Below, piece by piece: positions 1-39,314 of a stretch of DNA of 39,314 nt. The translations under genes and the position numbers were made by a program. The stretch covers positions 1-39,314 of the IMG/VR virus record IMGVR_UViG_3300033067_000415. One strand, given 5' to 3'. Positions within the stretch are counted from its first letter, which is position 1. Every line of letters begins with the position of its first letter. The stretch comes from a virus. Taxonomy: Duplodnaviria > Caudoviricetes. The notes under the pieces were generated by a model. The model saw only the letters and a program-made list of their open reading frames with translations, did no database searches and was not told the DNA's origin.

Positions 1-118
1 CGTCCCTCGTCTCCGTGTCGATGGCGATGACTCCGGACCCTCTCAGGTCCGGAAGCACCTCGGGAACGCTCCAGTCTGTCGACGGAAGCATAAAGCTCAT
101 CGGAAGCTGGTCTGCCAT
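1..118 (-). CDS. DNA polymerase, family A, N-terminus only (runs off the left edge)
   Basis: Not in the ORF track. Hand translation from ATG at 118 gives MADQLPMSFMLPSTDWSVPEVLPDLRGSGVIAIDTETRD; IAIDTET is an ExoI 3'-5' exonuclease motif. The ATG overlaps the upstream stop (TGATG). Confidence 0.75.
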   Translation of the reverse strand, partial: MADQLPMSFMLPSTDWSVPEVLPDLRGSGVIAIDTETRD

Positions 119-495
119 CAGACCTCCGGAATGTATGCTTGAGCCTGACGACGACCGCGAGTGTAGGAGTTCATCGCCTTGGTCTCGGTGTCCTGAGCGA
201 CGTAGGCGGGTGTCGGCTCAGCCGCCTTCTCCAGACGCTGGCGAACGCGGTCGCCACTCAGCTTGGCGTATCCGGCAATGTCGTCCCAGTGCTCGGCAAT
301 GTCCGGATTGCCCGTCACGACCCGACCCATCTTGTGAGCGATCATGTGCAGGGTCTCCTTCTGGTCGGCGGCGAGGCCAGCGAACCGACGGTGCTTCGCC
401 AGCACGGCCATGATCTCCTGCGTACAGTCGGCGTGTTCGGTATAGTCTCCGTGCGTCTTCGCGCGCTCGGCCAGAATTTCGTCGATGTTGGTCAT
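118..495 (-). CDS. Conserved phage helical protein (DUF6378-like), possibly nucleotide metabolism
   Basis: Start re-called to MTNIDEILAERAKTHGDY (ATGA overlap with the HD gene). Pattern IL.ER...HGD...KMGR...G......HWDDIAGYA is typical of this family. Confidence 0.7.
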   Translation of the reverse strand: MTNIDEILAERAKTHGDYTEHADCTQEIMAVLAKHRRFAGLAADQKETLHMIAHKMGRVVTGNPDIAEHWDDIAGYAKLSGDRVRQRLEKAAEPTPAYVAQDTETKAMNSYTRGRRQAQAYIPEV

Positions 496-992
496 CTCAC
501 TATGCCCCTCTCGATGTGGCTGTTGACTCTTGCTCTCTCGTCGTCGTTCGCGCAGAGTGAGAGCGCCGCCTCCGCAGTGCGGGAGACGATAGGTTGCGCG
601 AGCGTGTTGCCCCTGAGGACCTCCTCGGTGCCAAACTCCCACATCTCCAGCAGATCGCAAATCTTGATGAAGCGTGCGGCGGTCTCGGTAATGTCGTCAG
701 TGTCGTCACCGACGAGCTCGATGCGCTTCTCCCGCTCCACCCGATCGTGCGCCGCCTTGAGGTCGGGATTGTTGCGCTTCGACGGGAACGGCGCGTCCCC
801 TGGACCGATCTCTCCGATGTCGTGGTACATGATGGCCCGCACCACGCGCACCGAAGGCAGACCGAAGATTGAGTCGTAGATGCGAAGAACGTGCAGCGTG
901 TGCTCGGCGTTGTTCTGCTCGCGAATCACGGGCCAAGTGTGATACCTCTTGACCAGCGAAGCGAAGCGAATGCTCGCAGTTACGTCGATCAT
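492..992 (-). CDS. HD-domain nucleotide phosphohydrolase (YfbR/5'-deoxynucleotidase-like)
   Basis: C-terminal part of track ORF 492..1757, start MIDVTAS. Motifs VKRYHT, QNNAEH, YHDIGE..PGD.P, KICD.LE. ATGA overlap with the upstream gene. Confidence 0.85.
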   Translation of the reverse strand: MIDVTASIRFASLVKRYHTWPVIREQNNAEHTLHVLRIYDSIFGLPSVRVVRAIMYHDIGEIGPGDAPFPSKRNNPDLKAAHDRVEREKRIELVGDDTDDITETAARFIKICDLLEMWEFGTEEVLRGNTLAQPIVSRTAEAALSLCANDDERARVNSHIERGIVR

Positions 993-1960
993 GCGAGCCT
1001 CCGATGCATCCACTCCAGGACCGCCCTGCGCCAGTCCAGCGCCGAGATGCCCTCCGCCACGCGCAGAGCCGTGACCCGCGATCCGAACTTCCACTCGTAG
1101 TGGGCGAGCCACATCTGTCGAGCGACGTAAAGGAACCACGAGTTGCTGTAGGAGTTGGGACGCTCCGGGTGCGTCATGAACTTGAAGAGGTCCGCGTCCC
1201 AGTCGCTCCAGTTCTCCCCGATGGAGTATGTGGTCGGATATGCCGCCAGTGGGTCCTGAGCGAACTTGGGGCGGACGCTCTCGTACAGATGCCAGTTGTT
1301 GCTGAGCTGATAGTACTTGCCGACCCGGACTCCGATCATCCCGGCCATGTACTCCTGGAGGAAGCTGAAGTGGACCGCGTTCGCTCCGTAGGCACCCCAG
1401 ACGACGTCGTTGGAGCGGCAGGTCACGGTGATGTCCAGCGCCCCGTCCACGATGCGCGGATAGATGGCCGTGTTGCACGGAATGTCCCGAGCGATCTCGC
1501 CGCTGAGTGTGTAGTCCTCGCTGCACATATCCATCGCGCCGTCGAGCATCTGAATGACGACGCGGCGGTCCTTGGGATTGGCCCTCAGGCGAGTAACGAC
1601 TGATCCGATCTGGTCGTAGCCGAACCAGTTCCGCCAGCGGTATCCGTAGGCACCCCAGATGCGTCCGGTCTCCGGCTCGGCGTAGCGACTGGAGAAGTCG
1701 GAGACGAAGCGGTCGAGCCACTTGCCGTCGTCGCTGCCCGAGATCATCCACAGGCACTCGAAGAAGTGGAAGAACGGATTGGCGTCGCGGTGGCGGTTGA
1801 ACAGCACCCTCTGCGTCGGACGCTCGTAGACCGTCATCACGGGGAACGGCGCTGCGGTGACGTCTCCGTTGCGAGACTCCTCCGGAACTCCGAACTTACT
1901 CATCGCGATGACGGCCTTGTCGTAGGCGTCATTCACGTTCACTGCCTGGATGGTCAGCAC
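989..1960 (-). CDS. Thymidylate synthase homologue, likely dUMP hydroxymethylase (5-hmdUMP synthase)
   Basis: SRNG, catalytic PCN, RSNDVVWGAYGANAVHF and NWHLY motifs. Asn at the specificity position points to dUMP. The WG..GAN form and neighbourhood resemble YuA/M6-type hydroxymethylases. Confidence 0.85.
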   Translation of the reverse strand: MLTIQAVNVNDAYDKAVIAMSKFGVPEESRNGDVTAAPFPVMTVYERPTQRVLFNRHRDANPFFHFFECLWMISGSDDGKWLDRFVSDFSSRYAEPETGRIWGAYGYRWRNWFGYDQIGSVVTRLRANPKDRRVVIQMLDGAMDMCSEDYTLSGEIARDIPCNTAIYPRIVDGALDITVTCRSNDVVWGAYGANAVHFSFLQEYMAGMIGVRVGKYYQLSNNWHLYESVRPKFAQDPLAAYPTTYSIGENWSDWDADLFKFMTHPERPNSYSNSWFLYVARQMWLAHYEWKFGSRVTALRVAEGISALDWRRAVLEWMHRRLA

Positions 1961-2274
1961 GGCTTACCTCTTCTGTTGCTGAGTGTCGTTATCCCGCCGT
2001 AGTTCTTCTCTACGTACGACTGGGAGAACGTGTAGATGTCGTCGGCGAGGCGAGATGCCTCGACGTTCATTTGCTCGTGGGCGGGGTCGTCGGAAACCAC
2101 GTCACGCATATATCGCACAAGAATATGGGCGCAGACAAGCATGTTGAGCGCGCAGATGTTGTGCTTCCGACCGACGAACTGCATCATGACGATCAGGTCA
2201 TTGGCCGGAGCCATGACGTTCTGCTCGTTCTCGCAGTGGCAGGAGGGGTGGCTTCTCCTGATGTCGTCATCCAC
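1954..2274 (-). CDS. Hypothetical protein
   Basis: 106-aa ORF overlapping both neighbours and filling the gap between the glycosyltransferase and the TS homologue. No motif recognised. Confidence 0.6.
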   Translation of the reverse strand: MDDDIRRSHPSCHCENEQNVMAPANDLIVMMQFVGRKHNICALNMLVCAHILVRYMRDVVSDDPAHEQMNVEASRLADDIYTFSQSYVEKNYGGITTLSNRRGKPC

Positions 2275-3076
2275 GCCCGAACGCCTTCTTCCAGAAGATG
2301 GTGACCTCGGTCCGCGTGCCGAACTGGCCTCCGGTCTTGTTGACCTTGGTGCGGAGCTTGACGAACGGATGGTGCAGCTCGGCCAGCTTGCGAGCGGCGT
2401 CCTCGTGCAGCTGATGCGTGCGATAGGTGCTGCATCCGCCCGGAGCGTTGGTCATCTTCTGGTCCTGGGACCACCATCCGACGTTGTAGTTCGGCAGACC
2501 CATGCGAAGCAGCTGAAGGTTGACGTCGAAGTCCTCCATGACGGGGACGCGCCCGTGCTGCGCTTTCAGGAAGTCCCGCGTCCGATAGCACAGAACGCGC
2601 AGAGTCCGGGTGTTCTCCTCGCCGAGCTCGCTCCACCGACCGACGCCCATGTTGTTGTTCCCCTGACGAGCGGAGATGCCGACGTGGGCGTGAGTGTCGA
2701 GCTTCTTCTCGACGCAGTCCCACATCATGTCGACGTCCTCGTCGGTACACTTCACGAGGCCCGTGGCGTCCACCGCCATCCTGCGAACGAACCGAACGTC
2801 GTCGTCGACCATAGCGAACTTACCCTCCCCGCTCTCCGCGCACTGTACGCCGATCCAGTGGCGGGTCGCAGCGATCCCGAGGGCGGGGGTGGAGACAATC
2901 TCTACCCCGTCGGACAGAAGTCCGGTCTTGCCGAGGGTCTGACGGTAGTCGTCGAACTGCGCGGGCGGGACAACGTACACCGTCCGGTCGCGAACTTCTC
3001 CTGAGAAGTCGGCCACGGGTCCGGCGAGAATGCTCGCGGCGTCGCTGCGTCCGGCGCTGGGAATGTAGATCTTCAT
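2267..3076 (-). CDS. GT-A fold glycosyltransferase, base-J glucosyltransferase/GREB1/TAGT-like
   Basis: Start re-called to MKIYIPSAGR (ATGA overlap). IYIPS.GR first strand, MVDDD (DxD), MEDFD..LQLL..G and NAPGGCS motifs. Confidence 0.8.
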   Translation of the reverse strand: MKIYIPSAGRSDAASILAGPVADFSGEVRDRTVYVVPPAQFDDYRQTLGKTGLLSDGVEIVSTPALGIAATRHWIGVQCAESGEGKFAMVDDDVRFVRRMAVDATGLVKCTDEDVDMMWDCVEKKLDTHAHVGISARQGNNNMGVGRWSELGEENTRTLRVLCYRTRDFLKAQHGRVPVMEDFDVNLQLLRMGLPNYNVGWWSQDQKMTNAPGGCSTYRTHQLHEDAARKLAELHHPFVKLRTKVNKTGGQFGTRTEVTIFWKKAFGRG

Positions 3077-3390
3077 GACGGCTTCCTCTCTATGTCTTCC
3101 TCGGAACACAGCGTCCCGAACTGCATCTCTCGCATGACGACGTCGCCAACGACAGCCGTCACTCTGTGCCAAACTCCGCAGGGGATCGTGAAGCTGCTGC
3201 CAGCCGATCCGAAGTGGACCTCGTCGCCAATCTCGACCCTGACCGTGCCGTCGGCGATGAACCAGACCTCGGACCTGTGACTGTGGCGCTGAAGGCTCGT
3301 GCTGCGTCCCTCGAAGATATACATCGACTTGAACACGCAGGTATCCGTTCTGAGGTGATCCGTGTAGGCACCCCACTGTCTCTCGATCAT
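3073..3390 (-). CDS. Cupin, phosphomannose isomerase type II C-terminal-like
   Basis: Start MIERQWG. Motifs R.WG, SLQRHSHRSEVW, IP.G.WHR, EMQFG...EEDIER. Confidence 0.85.
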   Translation of the reverse strand: MIERQWGAYTDHLRTDTCVFKSMYIFEGRSTSLQRHSHRSEVWFIADGTVRVEIGDEVHFGSAGSSFTIPCGVWHRVTAVVGDVVMREMQFGTLCSEEDIERKPS

Positions 3391-3809
3391 GCCGCCTCCT
3401 TGATGGGCCAGATGTAGTTGAGCTCGGGCTCCTCGGACCAACCGAACTGCGAGTACCACTCCGGAGCCTTGTGGAGCAGAGCAGCGCGGTGAGACGCGTG
3501 GAACTTTTCACATCCTAGCCAAGGAGGCATCACGATGTCAAGAAAATAAGGTGCCGTGGGGTCCAGCATCAGCGGCATGTTGTTCTCGAAGCCCCTGCGC
3601 GTCCACTCGCGGATGCAGGCGTCGGTGTACGCCATCAGGGCCGTGGTGTGACCGTCCCACATCTTGGTCGCGGGATGGTTGGACCAGCCGCCGCCGTTCT
3701 GCAGAGCGTTCTGGATCTGCCTGCCCTCCACGCGCTGCTTGCCGAGGCGCTTGTCGTCCAGACACATGGCTGACGCTACGAAGTTGGGGTGAGGAAGGAA
3801 TGTCTGCAC
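3387..3809 (-). CDS. Pyrimidine-dimer DNA glycosylase / T4 endonuclease V-fold protein (MSMEG_6728-like)
   Basis: GTG start after AGGAG gives MQTFLP; motifs LDDKRLGKQRVE, W.NHPA..MW.G, PPWLG...HASHR..LL.K, YIWP. Confidence 0.85.
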   Translation of the reverse strand: MQTFLPHPNFVASAMCLDDKRLGKQRVEGRQIQNALQNGGGWSNHPATKMWDGHTTALMAYTDACIREWTRRGFENNMPLMLDPTAPYFLDIVMPPWLGCEKFHASHRAALLHKAPEWYSQFGWSEEPELNYIWPIKEAA

Positions 3810-3836
3810 GTTTTCTCCTGAGAATTGTGTTCTACC

Positions 3837-3865
3837 AGTATAGCGGTTGAACGCGCTGCGGACTA
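3837..3865 (-). promoter_or_regulatory. Putative promoter for the glycosylase-cupin-GT-TS-HD-polymerase operon
   Basis: Minus strand reads TAGTCC-N17-TATACT, with GTTC-aac-CGC directly before the -10; intergenic and upstream of an RBS. Confidence 0.6.
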
Positions 3866-6511: not shown

Positions 6512-6807
6512 CACACGGTCCTCACGTTGACGCCGTGGCGCACGGACAGTTCGGTTTCCTTGGTGTCGGCCTCCTGCTCTGCGGCATCGGCAACGGCGCT
6601 CAGGTACTCCTCCATCGTGAAAACGCCCTTCTTAATCAACAGCGCCACAAGGCCCGCCTGATCCGACTTCGACAGGTCGACCCCGGTGCGGAGGTCTTTG
6701 TATTGGTCTCGTGGGCGCTCCGGGTTGAAGGCGATTGCCGTCTGCACTCGGTGCGCCGCCTGCATGTAGCGTTCAGCGTCTTTCGCTCTCTGTCCGTGGT
6801 CAGTCAC
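6511..6807 (-). CDS. Hypothetical phage protein
   Basis: 98-aa ORF with GGAGG RBS, overlapping both neighbours. Confidence 0.7.
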   Translation of the reverse strand: MTDHGQRAKDAERYMQAAHRVQTAIAFNPERPRDQYKDLRTGVDLSKSDQAGLVALLIKKGVFTMEEYLSAVADAAEQEADTKETELSVRHGVNVRTV

Positions 6808-7246
6808 CGAGGAGTTCCTCCAGTCTGAGTCCGGTCACGCGCCGCGCGACGGGATTGTTGTACTCTCGGCACAGGCCGCTGGGATGCGGCAGACTGCACC
6901 ACTCGTAACCCGCGCGCGAGCACCAAAGCGCCGCGCTCGAGGGCCGCTGCAAATTAAGCACCCCAAGCACCGCCCCACCCAACAAGACCACTCGACGGCC
7001 TTCCCAGCCGCTCTCGAGGGCCTCGTACTTGCGGCGGGCGGCAATGGGGTCCCATATGCGGCTGTCGCACAGGTTTACGAACTCCAGCGAGCGGCGGAAC
7101 TCGGACCGCGAGACGCCGCAGACCTCGCTCACCATGCGCCAGAGATTCCAGCCCGCGCTGCCCCTCGGGTACGGAAGAAGTGCCGCCCTCGGGTCCTCCG
7201 AGAGCGGGTTGTTCATTCCGACTACGACCGCCCGCGTATCAGGCAT
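6800..7246 (-). CDS. Uracil-DNA glycosylase superfamily-like protein
   Basis: Motif A-like VVVGMNNP, GSAG..LW.M, VNL, VVLLG..V, and motif B LPHPSG...YN. Confidence 0.7.
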   Translation of the reverse strand: MPDTRAVVVGMNNPLSEDPRAALLPYPRGSAGWNLWRMVSEVCGVSRSEFRRSLEFVNLCDSRIWDPIAARRKYEALESGWEGRRVVLLGGAVLGVLNLQRPSSAALWCSRAGYEWCSLPHPSGLCREYNNPVARRVTGLRLEELLGD

Positions 7247-8396
7247 CTGCGGGTGCTCCGACCACGGCGGACACCAGCTTGTTCAGCAGGAAGGTCTGCA
7301 TCGCCCGCGTACAGTCGTCGAGCTTGTGGCGCTTGTGGAGCCACTCCTCGTAGAGCGTGACTGCGGCATAGCGGTCGCCCTGACGCAGCGCCTCGCGGCA
7401 CACGAAGATCTGGTCGCGCTCCCTGTGGTACAGACCCATCACGTTCGGGCCGAGCGTCTCGGTGACCTGCACCTCGTACAAGTCGAGGTCGCACTCCATG
7501 TACTCCAGAATGGCGAATGCCTCGCGCAGCACGTTGGACTCGTCCGGGGTCGGGGTGTGCTCGGGCCAGCAGCCGTCGCGCTGGTCACCGCTCTCCACCA
7601 TGCGACGGACGTTGTCGGAGACGTTCGCGTCGTTGCGGAAGCGCCGCGCCACGTTCATGAAGACCTCGGACGGTGCGGCACAGTACGTGAAGTTGAGGTT
7701 CTGGTCCCACGTGTCGGAGCCGCTGATCAGCGCGTGTGCGATGCGCTCGCTCTTGGTGGTGGGAATCTTGGTCTCGAGCAGGTACTCCAGCGCCCACATG
7801 CTCTTGAGAGTGCGGTCCTCGGTCAACTCGAGGTTGGCGGTCACGTTGTAGGTGAAGCAGCACTTCTCGGGCAGCTGAGCCACCCGCACCCCGCGATAGT
7901 ACACGAACGAGCTCGGCTGCGGGTGAATCTCGACACCGTCCAGAACCTCCAGCGGCTTGCTCTGCAGGAAGATCTCACCGCGCACCGAGTAGACGCGCTC
8001 GACCTCTGGACCCTGGACCACGAACACGGTGTCGTCGGTGGTGGGCTTGTCGGTAATGACGCCACTCTCGTCGAGCGTGTTGGAGTGCAGCTCGCGATAC
8101 GCCTGCCACACCTCCCAGTTCTTACCGAGGTCGGTGGTGAACGGAAGCGGCTCGTCGTTCATAAAGACCTGCCGGAAGGTCCGGCCGCGCACCTCGACGT
8201 CGCGAGTCGTGAAGGTGTAGGTCGTCCCGCCCGTAAAGAGCGAGATGTAGTGTCCGGTGCGGAGCAGCGTCGCGATTGCGAACTTGAGGCCCGTGCCGAA
8301 GTAGCCGATGGGCGTATCCGTCTCCTTGACGCTTACGCCCATGACCCGAATAACGGAGAGGTCGATGTGACCCCTGTTGGCGAAGTAGACTGGCAT
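7239..8396 (-). CDS. GHKL-type ATPase with a C-terminal zincin-like region
   Basis: F.N.G, MG.S.K and IGYFGTGLK (G boxes); RELHSNTLDE (N box); C-terminal MGLY.....IF...TLYEEWLH. AGGAG RBS. Confidence 0.7.
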   Translation of the reverse strand: MPVYFANRGHIDLSVIRVMGVSVKETDTPIGYFGTGLKFAIATLLRTGHYISLFTGGTTYTFTTRDVEVRGRTFRQVFMNDEPLPFTTDLGKNWEVWQAYRELHSNTLDESGVITDKPTTDDTVFVVQGPEVERVYSVRGEIFLQSKPLEVLDGVEIHPQPSSFVYYRGVRVAQLPEKCCFTYNVTANLELTEDRTLKSMWALEYLLETKIPTTKSERIAHALISGSDTWDQNLNFTYCAAPSEVFMNVARRFRNDANVSDNVRRMVESGDQRDGCWPEHTPTPDESNVLREAFAILEYMECDLDLYEVQVTETLGPNVMGLYHRERDQIFVCREALRQGDRYAAVTLYEEWLHKRHKLDDCTRAMQTFLLNKLVSAVVGAPADA

Positions 8397-8426: not shown

Positions 8427-8456
8427 ACCATAGCGTAGGAACAGCCCCGTGGACCA
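8427..8456 (-). promoter_or_regulatory. Putative promoter for the GHKL gene block
   Basis: TGGTCC-N18-TATGGT with GTTC-cta-CGC before the -10; followed by GCAACAC-AGGAG. Confidence 0.6.
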
Positions 8457-8460
8457 GCCG

Positions 8461-8910
8461 TCACCGCGCCGACTGCGGTCCTCGCTCCTGATTCTGGTAC
8501 TTGCCGACGTAGGGCGAGTCGGTCTCTCGGTCCAGCGCGTGGAACAGGATCTGGGCCACGGGCGTCCCCTCCGGAAGAGTCAGTACCTCGCGCTGATGGT
8601 TCGTCAGCTCGAGTGTCAGGTATCCGCACCATCCTGGCTCGATGACCGTATTCTGAACGGCGAGTCCCCTCCGCGCCCACGTGGACTTGTCGTGAACGAT
8701 ACCGACAACGTCCTTCGGCATCATGAAGTACTCGAGCGTCGAGGCCAGTACGAAGTCGCCCGGAAGGAGTACGACACCCTGATCAAGACGAACGTCGTAC
8801 CCGCAGGCACTCACGCCGAAGGTGGTTCCGGTCGGCTCGTGCAGAGTCCGCTCGACGAACGGGGAGACGGGCTTGATGTAGCGCAGAGTCTGCGCGCTGA
8901 GGACGGTCAC
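8461..8910 (-). CDS. dcd: dCTP deaminase
   Basis: GTG start (MTVLSAQT, GTGA overlap). Motifs GYDVRL, LASTLEYF.MP, DKSTWARRGL, IEPGW.G.LTLEL.N, AQI.F, Y.GKYQNQ. Confidence 0.92.
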   Translation of the reverse strand: MTVLSAQTLRYIKPVSPFVERTLHEPTGTTFGVSACGYDVRLDQGVVLLPGDFVLASTLEYFMMPKDVVGIVHDKSTWARRGLAVQNTVIEPGWCGYLTLELTNHQREVLTLPEGTPVAQILFHALDRETDSPYVGKYQNQERGPQSAR

Positions 8911-9197
8911 AGTCTGCTCTCCCGCATTGTCCGACGGAACTCTTCTCGGTCTCCGTGCCGAATCTTGCCACCAGCTACGATCTGCCACTTGTTCGCGCTC
9001 GGCCAGTACTGAGCCACGGCCCTCACGTTGCGATACACGTTCCAGTGACGCTCCGACATGATGCGGATGGTATATCCTCCCGCCTCCGCAGCCTCGACGA
9101 ACTGCTGCCACTCCGACTGAGCAGCCTCCAGCGCGTCGAGCCTAGACTCTCTGCGGTGATCCTTCATCGCCTTGAACAGATCGATCATGTCACCCAT
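8907..9197 (-). CDS. Hypothetical phage protein
   Basis: 96-aa ORF (MGDMIDLF...YWPS..KW) overlapping both neighbours. Confidence 0.7.
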   Translation of the reverse strand: MGDMIDLFKAMKDHRRESRLDALEAAQSEWQQFVEAAEAGGYTIRIMSERHWNVYRNVRAVAQYWPSANKWQIVAGGKIRHGDREEFRRTMRESRL

Positions 9198-10068
9198 GCG
9201 GATAGACTCCGCGCGGCCTGCCCTGTCCCAGACGAGCTCGCTCGTACTTGTCGAACTCGCAGAGGGTGTGCTCGACGTCGCGCATCTCCAGAGCGGGCCA
9301 GTAGGCGGGCCAGAGGTCGGGGTTGCGGGAGGTGTCGAGTACTGCTCGCATCTCGCAGACGAACAGGTGCTTCTTCTGCTTGCTGTCGAGAGGGCGACCG
9401 TAGAGTCGGTTCAGGCCGCGCATCGCTCCGGGACCGGGATTGGCCCACGACATGATGTCGGTCGCGTCGCGCAGAAGACAGGTCCAGCGCAGGTCGGTCA
9501 CGAACTCGTAGCTGGTGAAGTCGGCGATGTGATTCACCTTGCGGAACTGATCCCACGCATGCTCCAGAGTCCGAACGCGGCGAATCTCATCGAGGAACTC
9601 GTCTCGACGGTTCCAGACCCACTGAATCATCTGCAGAACGCCAGTCAGCTTATCCATCCCGTTGGGGCTGTTGATGATGTACGCTCCGGTGCAATACGGA
9701 CCCTTTCCGCAGAACGAGCGGATGGACGGTGCCATGCGGAACGCATCTCCGGACGTGATGAAGTCCTCGAAGGGCGTCAGGCCGTTGATAATCTTCTGGC
9801 AGAAGATGGCCTCTCCGGTGGTGTTCCGATTGAATAGACGGAAAACCACGGTCGCCATCATCGTGCGCAGATCGTCGTGATCGTATCTGTGGCGAGCGTT
9901 TCTGGCGAACCAGAGAGTCACGTTATCAAGCTCGCGATACACGTTCGTGAAGCGGAACTTGTGAAGGATCGGATCGTCGGTCCACGGTGCGGGGAGCTTC
10001 TGCTCAACCCGACGCAGATAGATCTTGTGACGCTCCTTGGCAAAGTCGAAGAATGGTCTCGGGTCCAT
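9190..10068 (-). CDS. aGPT-Pplase1 / 5-hmdU DNA kinase helical-domain family protein (HhH-glycosylase-like fold)
   Basis: Start re-called to MDPRPFFDF. Hallmarks F..ERH.IY.RR....PAPWTDDPIL...RFTNVYRELD, FRLFN, TGAYI, F.SYE...DL, NPGPGA.RGL, EH.LCEFDKY.R. Confidence 0.88.
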   Translation of the reverse strand: MDPRPFFDFAKERHKIYLRRVEQKLPAPWTDDPILHKFRFTNVYRELDNVTLWFARNARHRYDHDDLRTMMATVVFRLFNRNTTGEAIFCQKIINGLTPFEDFITSGDAFRMAPSIRSFCGKGPYCTGAYIINSPNGMDKLTGVLQMIQWVWNRRDEFLDEIRRVRTLEHAWDQFRKVNHIADFTSYEFVTDLRWTCLLRDATDIMSWANPGPGAMRGLNRLYGRPLDSKQKKHLFVCEMRAVLDTSRNPDLWPAYWPALEMRDVEHTLCEFDKYERARLGQGRPRGVYPHG

Positions 10069-26700: not shown

Positions 26701-26951
26701 TAGATGATCTGATGGTCAAGAGCCGCGCCGCTCTGTCCATTAATCGCGAAACCCTTGTTCGACATGGACGACATATTTGGCTTCGGAGTCAGCGCATTCA
26801 GCGCAGCACCCATCGCGGTTCCGACAGCAAAGCTCGCGGCAACGGCGGCAATGCCGCTGAGTCCAAGGAACGTGAAGGCTGTTCCGGCAGCGAGGGCTGT
26901 GGCGTATGCCGTTCCAGTCGAGATCGCTGCTACGACGGCAGAAATAGCCAT
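23796..26951 (-). CDS. Tail tip / central fibre protein (lambda J-like) with FN3 domains
   Basis: IIYGETRVGG, HRL.G.AY.Y, V.GKK.YDPR, N.ALCI.DY, FN3-like segments and 10-aa IT..KI repeats. Confidence 0.9.
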   Translation of the reverse strand: MAISAVVAAISTGTAYATALAAGTAFTFLGLSGIAAVAASFAVGTAMGAALNALTPKPNMSSMSNKGFAINGQSGAALDHQIIYGETRVGGARVYDTTTGTDNKYLHRVLAFSGHEIDSYQTIYVGEDAVTLDGAGMVTAPARYAGLVRIKSYLGTATQTADADLVSETAALVDGKWTSAHRLQGLAYLYVRFEYNADAYPNGLPAVSAVVRGKKLYDPRKDSTSPAYDSSLGVSTHRQTNPATWQFSSNSALCIRDYFASDYGLNQSGSRISDTHVAAAANVCAQTVSSEARYSTNGAFLTSEEPASLLRDLVTAMAGMVWYSGGLWCMKPGASATATLSFNEDDVRGGIQTATRHSRRENFNAVRGTFAGASTEWEVTDYPLVRDTTLATEMVVGLSYTITSLGSTNFTLYGAASNTVGTTFVATAVGVGTGTVDTFLGADNGRPNVMDVPLRFTTSPTACQRIGQVALRRVREQLTIAVNFDLRGLLITVGDEILFSNARFGWTNKRFEVVAWSLGISEDMSLYTKVTLREISTAVFGAETASNFELNNTTLPSPFLSNAPASLTLTPRVQFAADGSYVSSIAASWPASVDQFVRSYEIQWKLSSDTNYFSAVVDGTSYVIGSVLNQSVYDVRVRSINIYGFRGPFVAASVTVGKDTTPPALPTGISATGAFGYITLRWTNPADADFSYIQVWENSSNNSGTATQISSSFGSNFVRSNLDPSVTKYYWLKSVDTSGNVSAFTAVVSATTAFIDNDDFSNGIYSLFTAQGLYAIKDVTSIPGSGGFVGEKIYNRTDGKLYQWTGTAWTLVVANVADGSITETKIANDAITTPKIAANAVTAAEIAAATITGDRIVANTITGGLLATSGIITSSAQIGDALITNAKIGNAAVTAAKIQDAAITNAKIGNLEVDSAKIADLTVGTQKISYNAATVAVSGSAAGGLIGSASTITYITLYMSGIAGQPIIIGSYGMYKGSRSSSGNDYYVSVYMYLNGVAILGSSSNLDYTPITLLATGTGVDGTNVIALVVVTSFNNQVASNMTLFGLQSKR

Positions 26952-27412
26952 CAGTTCCCTCCGATGTACTTTCCGTAGACTCTCTCAGTGAGACTGAATC
27001 CGAGCCTCTCGAGGACTGCGTCGAACGGCCTGTGAGCCTTCGTGTTAATTAGTAGCACGGATACCCCGTCATCAGCAAGGCATCTTTCTGCGAACCGAAT
27101 CAGACCTATTCCGGTCCGACCGCGCCTGTAATCCGGACGCAGGTAGATCACGTCGTTGACCGCGAAGACGTGGTCCATGTAGTGAATGTGAGGACGACAG
27201 AACACGATGAAGTATCCCACCAGAACCTGACCGTCCCGCGCTGTGAAGCACTTGAGGATTCCAGACTCCTCGAGCCTGACGTACCCGTCCCAGTCGGGAT
27301 TGAGTCTGATGCGCTCCTTGTTCAGAGCGATCTCTTCCCAGTGATCCTCAACCAGTTTCTTCATCTCGGATGCTATGGTCGCCGTGAACTCTTGCTGGTA
27401 GCTGACTGTCAA
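26951..27412 (-). CDS. GNAT-family acetyltransferase
   Basis: LVGYF, NDVIYLRPDYRRGRTG..LI..AE, LERLGF...E..Y.K; overlaps both neighbours. Confidence 0.85.
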   Translation of the reverse strand: MTVSYQQEFTATIASEMKKLVEDHWEEIALNKERIRLNPDWDGYVRLEESGILKCFTARDGQVLVGYFIVFCRPHIHYMDHVFAVNDVIYLRPDYRRGRTGIGLIRFAERCLADDGVSVLLINTKAHRPFDAVLERLGFSLTERVYGKYIGGN

Positions 27413-37033: not shown

Positions 37034-37804
37034 TCAGTTGCGTTTCATCGTCTCAGCCGCGAGCTTGCGACCTTCGGCGGATTTGATCACCTCGGCGTAT
37101 GCGGTGTGATAGGTCACACCCTTCTCCGCAGCGTAGTCTCCGGCCATCTTCTCGAGCTTGGCGGAGGGGGTCGAGTCGTCGACGAAGTCCGACCCGCGCT
37201 CTTCGAAGCTCTTCTTGACAGCCGCGTCGGCGGACTTCAGCGACTTGAGGATGGCATCGCGCACTGCCGCGTCGGAGACACCTTCCACCGCCTTCAGCAG
37301 AGCAGCCTTCTCGTCATCGGTGCCGACCATGTTCGGCATGTGCTCGACGGCACGCTTCTTCAGGTCGACGAGCTGAGCAGCCTTGCGGAGATCGTCAGCT
37401 TCCTTTGCGGACTTCTCGAGCTGAGCGAGAACCGGAGCAGGAATGGTCGACTTGGCGATCTTCTCGCCGGAGATCTCGATGAACTCCTCCTCGGTCTGAG
37501 CGGACTTCGAGATAACCATCTCGCCATCCATCTCTTCCATCGACATGCCAGCCTTCTCCATGGCGGACATCATCTTCTTGTACTTGGACTCGTAGTCCAT
37601 GTTCGCCTTCTCGAGTCCGGAGACCTGAGTCTCGAGCTCCTCGAGCTTCTTCGCGAGTTCCTCGGGATTCATACGATCCCCTCCTTTCGTTGCATCAGCT
37701 CTCTTCCACAGCACGACGGTCGATCCCTTGTTCGCCGGATCGCTCACGTGACTGATCTCGTTCAAGACCAGATTCTTGATGACATTCCGCTTACTCTGCG
37801 GCAT
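37034..37804 (-). CDS. Scaffold protein with an N-terminal protease-like peptide
   Basis: N-terminal L.EIS.V..PAN; helical E/K/A-rich body; C-terminal AY.EV. GAGGTG RBS for ATG 37804 and a second strong RBS for ATG 37672. Confidence 0.75.
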   Translation of the reverse strand: MPQSKRNVIKNLVLNEISHVSDPANKGSTVVLWKRADATKGGDRMNPEELAKKLEELETQVSGLEKANMDYESKYKKMMSAMEKAGMSMEEMDGEMVISKSAQTEEEFIEISGEKIAKSTIPAPVLAQLEKSAKEADDLRKAAQLVDLKKRAVEHMPNMVGTDDEKAALLKAVEGVSDAAVRDAILKSLKSADAAVKKSFEERGSDFVDDSTPSAKLEKMAGDYAAEKGVTYHTAYAEVIKSAEGRKLAAETMKRN

Positions 37805-39314
37805 GGCGCTCACCTCTTCCACCGATGGAGAATGCCGGAAGATCCCCCGACTTTACCCCGCTCCAGGTCGCATCGTCGAGGACCTTGAAGCCAGCGATGA
37901 GACCCTCGCGATCAGTCGTGATCCCGAGAGCGTCGGCCAGAGATTTCGAGAGCGGGAGCAGGGCGATAACCTCGCTCGTCTGCTTCCCGAAGTGCTCGGT
38001 CTTGCCGACCCGATAGTTCCGCATGAAGTCGACCGAAGCCTTGGTCAACTCCTCCATCGGGATGTGATCGCCGTGAACGTCGTAGACAGGCAAGCCTGCC
38101 TCAGTCGCGACGGAGACCCAACCCCACACGATCCGCTGCTCGTCGTCTGCCTTGATGATACTGACAGAGGAGCTGATGTTGTTCGACTTTTCCATCACAG
38201 CACCGAGGATAGCACGGATTGCAGCGTCAAGCAAGTCCCCATTTGACTCATCCTCGCTCTCAGTTTCGTCCTCGTCCTCACTCTCGGGCCACAGGGACTC
38301 GACGTAGTCCTCCTCGTCCTCGCCCGGACGGTAGTAGAGCTGACCGTCGACGATGACGTAGTGAATGTCGCCGTGCAGACCGAGATCGACGGACCGCGCC
38401 ATCGCCCCGAGCATGTCGGTGAACAGGTCGTCGGTCACCTGACGCTTCTCCACTCGCTCGGAGATACTCTTGGCCCAATCGACGCCCGTGGTGCCGCCCC
38501 ACAGCAGCCACGCCACGTGACCAGCGTCCTTCCACGGCTCGCTCTTGTACTCAGGAGCGACCTCCGAGTTCTTGCGATGACGATTGAACTGAGCCATGCG
38601 CTTCACGGTGTCCAGACTGAGCTTCTCCCCGCTCGACAGCTGATTGGCGCGAGTCCAGCCGACCTGAGTGCCGCCCTTGACTGCGTCACCGTGCTCCTTC
38701 TTCCACTCGATCGCCCTCCGAGCGTTGTTCCGAGCCGACTCAGGCGGGAGGTAGCCCTCCGCCTTCCTGACCTTGCGGCGGCGAGAGCGCCAGTCGGTGG
38801 AGGGAACGTGAACTGCGTCGGTGGTCGGGTCGCTCTTCTCCACGACCTTGTCGGACCAGTTCGGGTCGATGGGTCGGTAGGTCAGAGGACCGAGAACGAT
38901 GTCTCCGTCGAAGGGCTCGATCGAGTTGACGTCGAAGTCCGGACCCGCCGAGTACGTCAGCGAGATGTGAGGCTGATATCCGTCCCAGCTCCAGGATGCA
39001 CCAATGCGACGATGATCGAGCCACTCCTGCGTCAGATCAAGCGAGTCGAGCTTGAGGACCAGAGCATTCTTCTCGGAGCCGAACAGATCGAGGGTCCGCT
39101 TGCCGCCGCGAATGATGCGCCTGTCCGCCCACATGCCGACAGGATCCGACAGCATCGGGTCAGGTGCAGACATGAACGGAGTCTTCGAGTAGACGACCGT
39201 GACGTGCATGTCGTCCGGCAGAAGGGTCTTCTCGAGACCGCTCGACTGCGCCCACGCAACGATCTCCTCGGCGTTCAGGACCGGACGGAATCCGTACAGA
39301 GGAACGGCACCGCT
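37791..39314 (-). CDS. Multidomain head protein (5' end outside the window): Acb1-like 2H phosphoesterase, middle domain, XkdF-like prohead protease
   Basis: Frame is open to the window edge (SGAVPLYGFRPVLNAEEIVAWAQ...DDMHVTVVYS). 2H motifs HVT and PHIS. C-terminal QRIVWGW, D.HGD.I, EH, FSIGG. Confidence 0.85.
   Translation of the reverse strand, partial: SGAVPLYGFRPVLNAEEIVAWAQSSGLEKTLLPDDMHVTVVYSKTPFMSAPDPMLSDPVGMWADRRIIRGGKRTLDLFGSEKNALVLKLDSLDLTQEWLDHRRIGASWSWDGYQPHISLTYSAGPDFDVNSIEPFDGDIVLGPLTYRPIDPNWSDKVVEKSDPTTDAVHVPSTDWRSRRRKVRKAEGYLPPESARNNARRAIEWKKEHGDAVKGGTQVGWTRANQLSSGEKLSLDTVKRMAQFNRHRKNSEVAPEYKSEPWKDAGHVAWLLWGGTTGVDWAKSISERVEKRQVTDDLFTDMLGAMARSVDLGLHGDIHYVIVDGQLYYRPGEDEEDYVESLWPESEDEDETESEDESNGDLLDAAIRAILGAVMEKSNNISSSVSIIKADDEQRIVWGWVSVATEAGLPVYDVHGDHIPMEELTKASVDFMRNYRVGKTEHFGKQTSEVIALLPLSKSLADALGITTDREGLIAGFKVLDDATWSGVKSGDLPAFSIGGRGERHAAE

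Follow-up and report, generated by a model that had tools for sequence, protein, structure and literature searches.

The window analysed here is the whole virus record IMGVR_UViG_3300033067_000415 (G000), a linear stretch of 39,314 bases that is ~67% complete. Its genes form a replication module (~1-18 kb) and a siphovirus-type head and tail module (~19-39 kb), both encoded on the minus strand. The replication module contains a gene chain in which a glycosyltransferase (GT) of the TAGT family is encoded close to a thymidylate synthase (TS) homologue, hereafter called the synthase; judged from its context, the GT probably acts on DNA and moves a sugar to 5-hydroxymethyluracil (hmU). An initial annotation of this DNA had proposed such a sugar and had described the chain, running from an EndoV-fold protein to a DNA polymerase A. 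Profile searches found these genes at the same coordinates and all on the minus strand (Table 1), and the overlapping stops and starts were found as well: four junctions are ATGA, two further overlaps measure 8 and 7 nt and the polymerase begins at TGATG. The coordinates given leave out two further genes, for PF18723 and for a dCTP deaminase whose predicted product would feed dUMP to the synthase.

Table 1 Features in and around the glycosyltransferase gene chain of the window
Feature	Position	Strand	Family matches and remarks
DNA polymerase A start	1..118	-	record ends at base 1; first 39 codons only
DUF6378-like small protein	118..495	-	PF19905, E 2e-5; 25.1 bits, just below the Pfam cut-off of 27.1
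HD-domain YfbR-like nucleotidase	492..992	-	PF12917, E 3e-8; slot of M6 gp59
dUMP hydroxymethylase-type thymidylate synthase homologue	989..1960	-	PF00303; phrog_5131, E 5e-87; core
Small hypothetical protein	1954..2274	-	no family; clade-restricted
TAGT-family GT-A glycosyltransferase	2267..3076	-	PF20691, E 1e-13; phrog_842, E 2e-32; core
Mannose-6-phosphate-isomerase-type cupin	3073..3390	-	PF01050, E 1e-13; accessory
EndoV-fold (pyrimidine-dimer-glycosylase; MSMEG_6728-family) protein	3387..3809	-	PF03013, E 2e-24; NF038085; accessory
Promoter-like element, TAGTCC-N17-TATACT type	3837..3865	-	upstream of the chain; putative
Possible uracil-DNA-glycosylase-fold protein	6800..7246	-	recurs close to the module (10/80 loci)
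dCTP deaminase	8461..8937	-	PF22769 and TIGR02274, both over cut-off
PF18723 protein (old name aGPT-Pplase clade 1; M6 gp55 homologue)	9190..10068	-	PF18723, E 1.5e-46; core

Conservation of the core module

The surroundings of the GT gene were compared in the best 80 of 168 confirmed IMG/VR loci, which form 44, 23 and 13 groups at 90, 70 and 55% identity, respectively. A synthase is encoded in 79 of them, in 65 at a distance of at most 300 nt, and the single exception ends within the GT gene. The neighbouring synthases are of the uracil type throughout, with DxPCN in 79/79 and the decisive Asn in 79/79. PF18723 was found in 74 loci, in 40 of these within 300 nt of the GT, and the remaining six loci end less than 700 nt upstream of the GT. 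Because of these counts, as compared with those of the cupin and the small hypothetical protein (1/80 loci each), the core of the module consists of GT, synthase and PF18723, and the cupin was rejected as a core part. In the slot of the hypothetical protein, L088 and L182 have open reading frames (ORFs) of similar size. Other genes near the GT encode HIGH-type nucleotidyltransferases (33 loci), radical SAM proteins (9) and FkbM-like methyltransferases (6).

Only six phage records in GenBank matched the GT, the best being gp22 of PhiJL001 (38% identity). Genes gp19-gp28 of this alphaproteobacteria phage (AY576273) encode PF18723, a TAGT GT, a dUMP-hydroxymethylase-like TS, an HD protein, a small DUF protein and polymerase A in the same order as in the window, and neither phage has a kinase or the amino-acid:DNA transferase AADT over cut-off. 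They differ in that the PF18723 gene of the window lies 6 kb upstream, that Nmad5 was not seen there, and that an EndoV-like gene and the cupin gene are inserted. The PhiJL001 record already names a glucosyl transferase and a likeness to the SPO1 hydroxymethylase; a literature search did not find a description of the DNA chemistry of this phage. LuckyBarnes and Ralstonia phage RSL1 also cluster the three families, and in the alignment the LuckyBarnes synthase carries the uracil-type Asn, unlike the dCMP hydroxymethylase guessed in its genome announcement. A scan of bacterial genomes gave two loci: L191, a lone GT without a synthase, and L190, a 28-kb contig with the complete PF18723-GT-TS-polymerase module, which was binned into a Woesebacteria metagenome-assembled genome and probably derives from a phage. 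In cultured jumbo phage RSL1, ORF238-230 (L004:7265-15659) comprise three TAGT-type genes, an APS kinase, a sulfotransferase and nucleotidyltransferases beside PF18723 and an Asn-type synthase, a gene content that suggests a sulfated oligosaccharide on hmU.

Predicted roles of the core proteins

The synthase carries the RSND..WG..GAN motif and its nearest cultured relatives are found in YuA/M6-like Pseudomonas phages and Pam3 (~41-42% identity). In E. coli ThyA, N177 is the dUMP/dCMP switch and L143 correlates with methyl versus hydroxymethyl product (excerpt of PMC13326640). Aligned with ThyA, the synthase has D159 at L143, C162 at C146, D185 at D169 and N194 at N177, thus the catalytic Cys, the Asn and an acidic residue of a dUMP hydroxymethylase. 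The same pattern is common to SPO1 gp29, SP10 gp188, M6 gp58, the PhiW-14 enzyme and PhiJL001 gp24, and N184-D185 also match SPO1 gp29, SP10 gp188 and M6 gp58; this residue alignment left out ViI, and the Asp of T4 gp42 was misplaced by the aligner. Since the residues at the ThyA positions match those of the SPO1, SP10 and M6 enzymes, dUMP hydroxymethylase is the best reading of the synthase, and the dUMP-type assignment made at first sight held in this comparison with dCMP enzymes. A tree of TS homologues was mostly unresolved (4 of 16 branches starred). Exactly one TS homologue was found in each of 21 records. In sequence searches the solved structure closest to the synthase was that of MilA, a CMP hydroxymethylase, and TAGT enzymes are best known for acting on 5-hydroxymethylcytosine (hmC), both of which would fit a synthase with dTMP or a cytosine derivative as its product and a GT that decorates cytosine as in T-even phages. 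This is extremely improbable, as the synthase lacks the features of dCMP hydroxymethylases/hydroxylases (T4 gp42, MilA, RB69 gp48): Asn194 stands where MilA has Asp, Asp185 is retained at the D169 position, which is changed to Asn in the hydroxylases, and Asp159 takes the place of the ThyA leucine. Furthermore, a dCTP deaminase is encoded, and a TET/JBP gene (Tet_JBP) was found in 0/21 records, in a search in which no positive control rang.

The GT scored 52.1 bits against PF20691 (cut-off 27.5) and its predicted structure has a GT-A fold (pLDDT 94.9). In 70 aligned homologues, taken from the 120 listed of 736 matches, R10, D91-D93 and E181-D182 are invariant. These residues correspond to the R..DDD..EDF motifs reported for JGT and for phage GT-As that act on DNA in the part of Pyle et al. 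consulted (bioRxiv 2023.12.21.572611), and with cut-off, fold and motifs the protein belongs to the TAGT family. Its likeness to kinetoplastid JGT is taken from these motifs as published. The GT is homologous to T6 ggt (E 5e-14), and among predicted viral structures its nearest matches are TAGT-type phage proteins. A sequence search of the PDB gave no match for the GT or the PF18723 protein, and the solved structures matching the GT are all general GT-A enzymes (Z 12-14). The latter would also be expected if the GT acted on a non-DNA acceptor, such as a host surface glycan or a virion protein, and the phage merely cycled hmU to thymine (T); HIGH nucleotidyltransferases and cupins are known from phage surface-glycan clusters (PMC7824862, in part), and ~65% of phage GT contigs have no base-modification neighbour in the survey by Pyle et al., as far as its excerpts go. 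Such an acceptor is nevertheless very unlikely, given the near-invariant place of the GT between PF18723 and synthase in 13 divergent groups, its TAGT-type structural neighbours and the finding that it never occurs together with AADT. The initial proposal of a probable hmU-DNA enzyme is supported by the linkage to synthase and PF18723 and by the lack of kinase and AADT in GT records.

This lack was determined by searching 44 records with a GT over their whole length, namely four GenBank phages and the 40 longest IMG/VR records in the set of 80. AADT (PF18724) and the P-loop 5-hmdU DNA kinase (PF18748) were over cut-off in 0/44 of these and in 0/15 near-complete ones, but in both controls (M6, Pam3); a single sub-cut-off match to PF18724 lies inside the PF18723 gene of PhiJL001. 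Both were also missing in five further records, including the window record and its 90%-complete relative. In M6 the order is AADT (gp51), PLP (gp52), radical SAM (gp53), kinase (gp54), then PF18723 (gp55), Nmad5, TS, HD, DUF3310-like and polymerase, in PhiJL001 it is PF18723, GT, Nmad5, TS, HD, DUF3310 and polymerase. With kinase and AADT absent from GT records, the GT occupies the place of the M6-type cassette. A second set, anchored on PF18723 (best 80 of 418 loci), contains GT-A genes in 23 loci, AADT in 5 and both in none; methyltransferase-like genes were found in 32, GT-B in 9, other GT-like genes in 8 and none of these in 3, and seven loci without GT or detected AADT gave weak kinase-like matches. 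In a FastTree phylogeny of 58 PF18723 proteins the cassette labels are interleaved, but the support is not strong enough for swaps to be counted. The window record, the L005 and L088 records and PhiJL001 gave no second GT. Since the TAGT is the only GT detected in most carriers, hmU is the only evident hydroxyl acceptor.

Two of the other cassette kinds deserve mention. In L097 (9144-9983) and its kin, which make up the 32 methyltransferase-like loci, a PF13489 S-adenosylmethionine-dependent methyltransferase-like gene lies directly upstream of PF18723 and TS, and the locus has no GT, kinase or AADT; an O-methylated hmU is a speculation. GT-B or GT-B-like genes lie between PF18723 and synthase in L116:11893-13230, L149:11663-12691, L130:11315-12310 and L057:10828-11838, some with radical SAM/SPASM or FkbM genes.

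The PF18723 protein has 292 amino acids, all spanned by the domain, and no P-loop kinase features. In SP10, PF18723 forms the C-terminal part of the gp186 fusion, and the kinase activity of SP10 resides in the N-terminal domain alone (PMC8989533, in part), so PF18723 is not the kinase. A kinase role was thus rejected, also because the window protein has no kinase domain; the Pfam name, which denotes the helical domain of a 5-hmdU DNA kinase, fits the gp186 fusion. PF18723 is instead regarded here as a helical relative of amino-acid:DNA transferases. E266, H267 and C270 are invariant in 96 aligned homologues, taken from the 120 listed of 2559 matches; the alignment was used because a Glu/Cys pattern search of 74 loci was unreliable (44 EHxxCE, 14 other, 16 none). 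The best fold match of the PF18723 model is PaMx11 gp46 (Z 10.6, root-mean-square deviation 4.1, 220 aligned residues), tied with DUF2419 (Z 10.3). In gp46, E243-T-x-x-C247 provides a metal ligand and the catalytic cysteine (excerpt of PMC11472151), a motif that E266-H-x-x-C270 parallels. According to Lee et al. 2022 (PMC8989533), virions of SP10, PhiW-14, M6 and ViI contain no 5-hydroxymethyldeoxyuridine (5-hmdU), which is converted to the hypermodified base or thymine; in lysates, M6 group transfer proceeded without a need for gp55, and a figure legend describes the formation of dT by M6 gp54 and gp51 with borohydride. PF18723 is present in M6, ViI, PhiW-14 and SP10 but absent from SPO1 and Goe10, and in the part of Lee et al. 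2018 consulted the class was confined to hypermodifying phages among those compared; the sections of PMC13458397 consulted do not mention clade 1. Based on the phage distribution, the gp46-like fold with Glu/Cys and the formation of dT by AADT with borohydride, we propose that PF18723 converts hmU to thymine, an assignment to which we give slightly less than an even chance. In Microbacterium phage Casey (L170; gp55, gp50) a PF18723-like gene accompanies a synthase of the cytosine type, with Asp at the N177 position, so the link between this family and uracil is not a strict one.

The initial annotation had assumed that hmU replaces T, that part of it is glycosylated and that the rest stays in the virion as free hmU, as in SPO1. 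Synthase and GT fit this version equally, and the kinase that would provide the leaving group for the known Glu/Cys chemistry is absent. But PF18723 is kept in 74/74 GT loci with enough flank, the four characterised PF18723 carriers package T and no hmU (M6-type virions; PMC8989533, in part), and SPO1 does not have PF18723; a virion with free hmU in place of T is therefore unlikely.

Sugar donor, accessory genes and neighbouring features

The cupin had been considered the sugar-supply enzyme of the pathway, a role that its occurrence in a single one of the 80 loci does not support. In close relatives it forms the C-terminal half of a nucleotidyltransferase-cupin fusion, whose other half in L005 is a CTP_transf_like domain. 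The GT gene is preceded by this fusion in L005, by an ORF of the same size in L183, L184/L185 and L186, by the cupin alone in the window and L182, and by an NAD-dependent epimerase/dehydratase in L088, which suggests that the lone cupin is a remnant of the fusion. The variation of the preceding gene fits a GT with a varying sugar donor. As an intact donor pathway was not found in the sequenced part, a nucleoside diphosphate (NDP)-sugar of the host is the simplest donor, and the sugar would probably be a hexose or pentose that the host makes. Beta-glucose on hmU, which is base J proper, is one option that we hold only tentatively.

The EndoV-fold gene has a counterpart in many, but not all, related loci. 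The HD/YfbR-like protein probably shapes the nucleotide pool. The slot of the DUF6378-like gene is taken by DUF3310 or another small family in relatives. The call of a polymerase A stands on the gene order in relatives and a likeness by eye to the start of the L005 polymerase, while its 39 codons gave no family match. The protein at 6800-7246 had no match in Pfam; its neighbours in the Atlas, at 0.95, include a cluster with PF03167 in 12% of members, and the uracil-DNA-glycosylase fold is a lead only. The promoter proposed upstream of the chain is partly borne out: a similar element recurs at 8427-8456 and before the same gene in L005 and L088, but a sigma-70 consensus scan missed 3865-3837 and gave a single match, within the EndoV gene, with 1.7 expected by chance. 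No chance rate can be given for TAGTCC-N17-TATACT, because the pattern was derived from these very sites. Contigs from other studies (X3, X4) span all or most of the EndoV-cupin-GT region without gaps; the layout thus does not stem from misassembly. Base composition and tRNAs of the window were uninformative.

Elsewhere in the window, an anti-CBASS Acb1 domain (PF23474, E 3e-20) is fused ahead of an XkdF-type protease domain (37791-39314, the head-protease region, cut by the record end), a 385-amino-acid phrog_8203 protein (7239-8396) has its own copy of the promoter-like element, and a GNAT acetyltransferase-like gene (26951-27412) lies within the tail module.

Proposed pathway and its relation to known systems

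In the pathway that we propose, dCTP deaminase and synthase would supply 5-hydroxymethyl-dUMP, from which polymerase A would build hmU-DNA, the activity being assigned by comparison with SPO1, SP10 and M6. The GT-A would then move a sugar from an NDP-sugar directly onto the hydroxymethyl oxygen of part of the hmU in DNA. A kinase would be unnecessary, because the hydroxyl attacks the sugar donor directly, and this fits the absence of both kinase and AADT. At unmodified hmU the Glu/Cys of PF18723 would form an exocyclic methylene, to which a hydride is presumably added to give T before packaging. The sugar would likely serve to shield the DNA from host nucleases. Taken by its parts, the placement of a sugar on hmU without a kinase step is likely, the origin of virion T from unmodified hmU is reasonably probable, and the full model of replication with hmU, partial glycosylation and conversion of the remainder to T is somewhat favoured. 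Because the unmodified share becomes T in M6-type phages, ordinary T in the virion would not speak against a sugar on hmU.

Several observations weigh against this pathway. The TAGT homologue of T6 is annotated as adding a second sugar onto a sugar and not onto the base (PMC13390438, in part), and 4 of 17 near-complete GT records carry another GT-like gene. AADT chemistry as demonstrated depends on phosphate as the leaving group, and no known kinase was found in these phages. Since the window record is ~67% complete, genes may be missing from it, and the absence of kinase and AADT rests on the relatives (82 and 90% complete). The GT- and PF18723-anchored sets overlap partly and over-represent kin of the query, and in the largest PF18723 and TS class (32/80) a methyltransferase-like gene is found with neither GT nor AADT. 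PF18723 resembles AADT modestly in structure (Foldseek E 0.18, Z tied with DUF2419) and not significantly in the sequence-profile comparison, and its correlation with T conversion compares four phages with two only. Finally, SP10 makes glutamyl-T with PF18723 present and PF18724 not detectable, so PF18723 may be a group transferase. It could then add the first group, or use the GT product as its leaving group, with the TAGT acting second, and the product would be a linker-plus-sugar or compound base rather than a base-J-like one. The homology to T6 ggt with its second-sugar role, SP10 with PF18723 only, the short distance (<=300 nt) between PF18723 and GT in 40/74 loci and the linker-sugar thymidines of SP-15, YerA41 and Carin-5 all agree with this order of events. 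We consider it quite unlikely, since gp55 was dispensable for group transfer in M6 lysates, PF18723 occurs with every kind of cassette, as fits a shared housekeeping step, and a linker-synthesis cluster was not seen in the loci.

The proposed direct glycosylation of hmU resembles known systems in part. With the hypermodification systems of M6, YuA, PaMx11, ViI, PhiW-14 and SP10 the window shares the synthase type and PF18723, and with M6 also the TS-HD-small gene-polymerase backbone, but the P-loop kinase, AADT, PLP and M6-type radical SAM cassette was not found and a GT-A is present instead. The predicted O-glycosyl-hmU product resembles kinetoplastid base J (JBP1/2 and JGT), whose GT shares GT-A motifs with the window enzyme according to excerpts of Pyle et al.; however, a TS homologue would make the hmU ahead of replication, whereas base J arises by a dioxygenase acting on DNA. 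The T2/T6 beta-glucosyl-HMC-alpha-glucosyltransferase and the TET-linked GT-As of Pyle et al. belong to the same DNA-acting family but act on cytosine derivatives; the T6 enzyme is described as adding a second glucose, whereas the partner synthase in the window is of the uracil type and a first GT was not detected. SP-15, YerA41 and Carin-5 also carry sugars at T positions and have GT genes near the polymerase, but with a linker of 88-104 Da, phosphate, several sugars, multi-gene clusters and genomes of 145-222 kb (PMC12686479, in part), compared with one GT and a genome type of roughly 60 kb here. The earlier statement that a chemically confirmed phage example is missing thus holds for direct glycosyl-hmU, for which our literature search, covering few subscription journals, found no chemical proof in phage DNA, but has to be narrowed with respect to linker-borne sugar thymidines. 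TAGTs were reportedly predicted by Iyer et al. in 2013. The pairing of GT and hydroxymethylase is already visible in the PhiJL001 GenBank record, and GT-A contigs with ThyS genes were surveyed in 2023-24 (Pyle et al., bioRxiv 2023.12.21.572611, in part). Phage T-dioxygenases have been linked to GTs, with the sugar product not described in the sections of PMC13229309 consulted.

If correct, the pathway would extend the thymidine hypermodification of phages by a branch that uses sugars and provide a source of a base-J-like nucleotide in prokaryotic viruses, and a small single-domain enzyme could serve to label hmU in duplex DNA. PF18723 is a testable candidate for an old gap, the formation of thymine at the polymer level in hmU phages. 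Taken further, it is conceivable, albeit doubtful, that widespread phages make base J or analogues with lineage-specific sugars by a pre-replicative, kinase-free hmU route with PF18723 as the hmU-to-T enzyme; in the same tentative picture, TS and PF18723 would be a constant chassis, and exchange of the cassette attached to it (amino-acid, GT-A, GT-B or methyltransferase-like) would change the base that is made. The main claim is directly testable in PhiJL001, a cultured phage with the same module.

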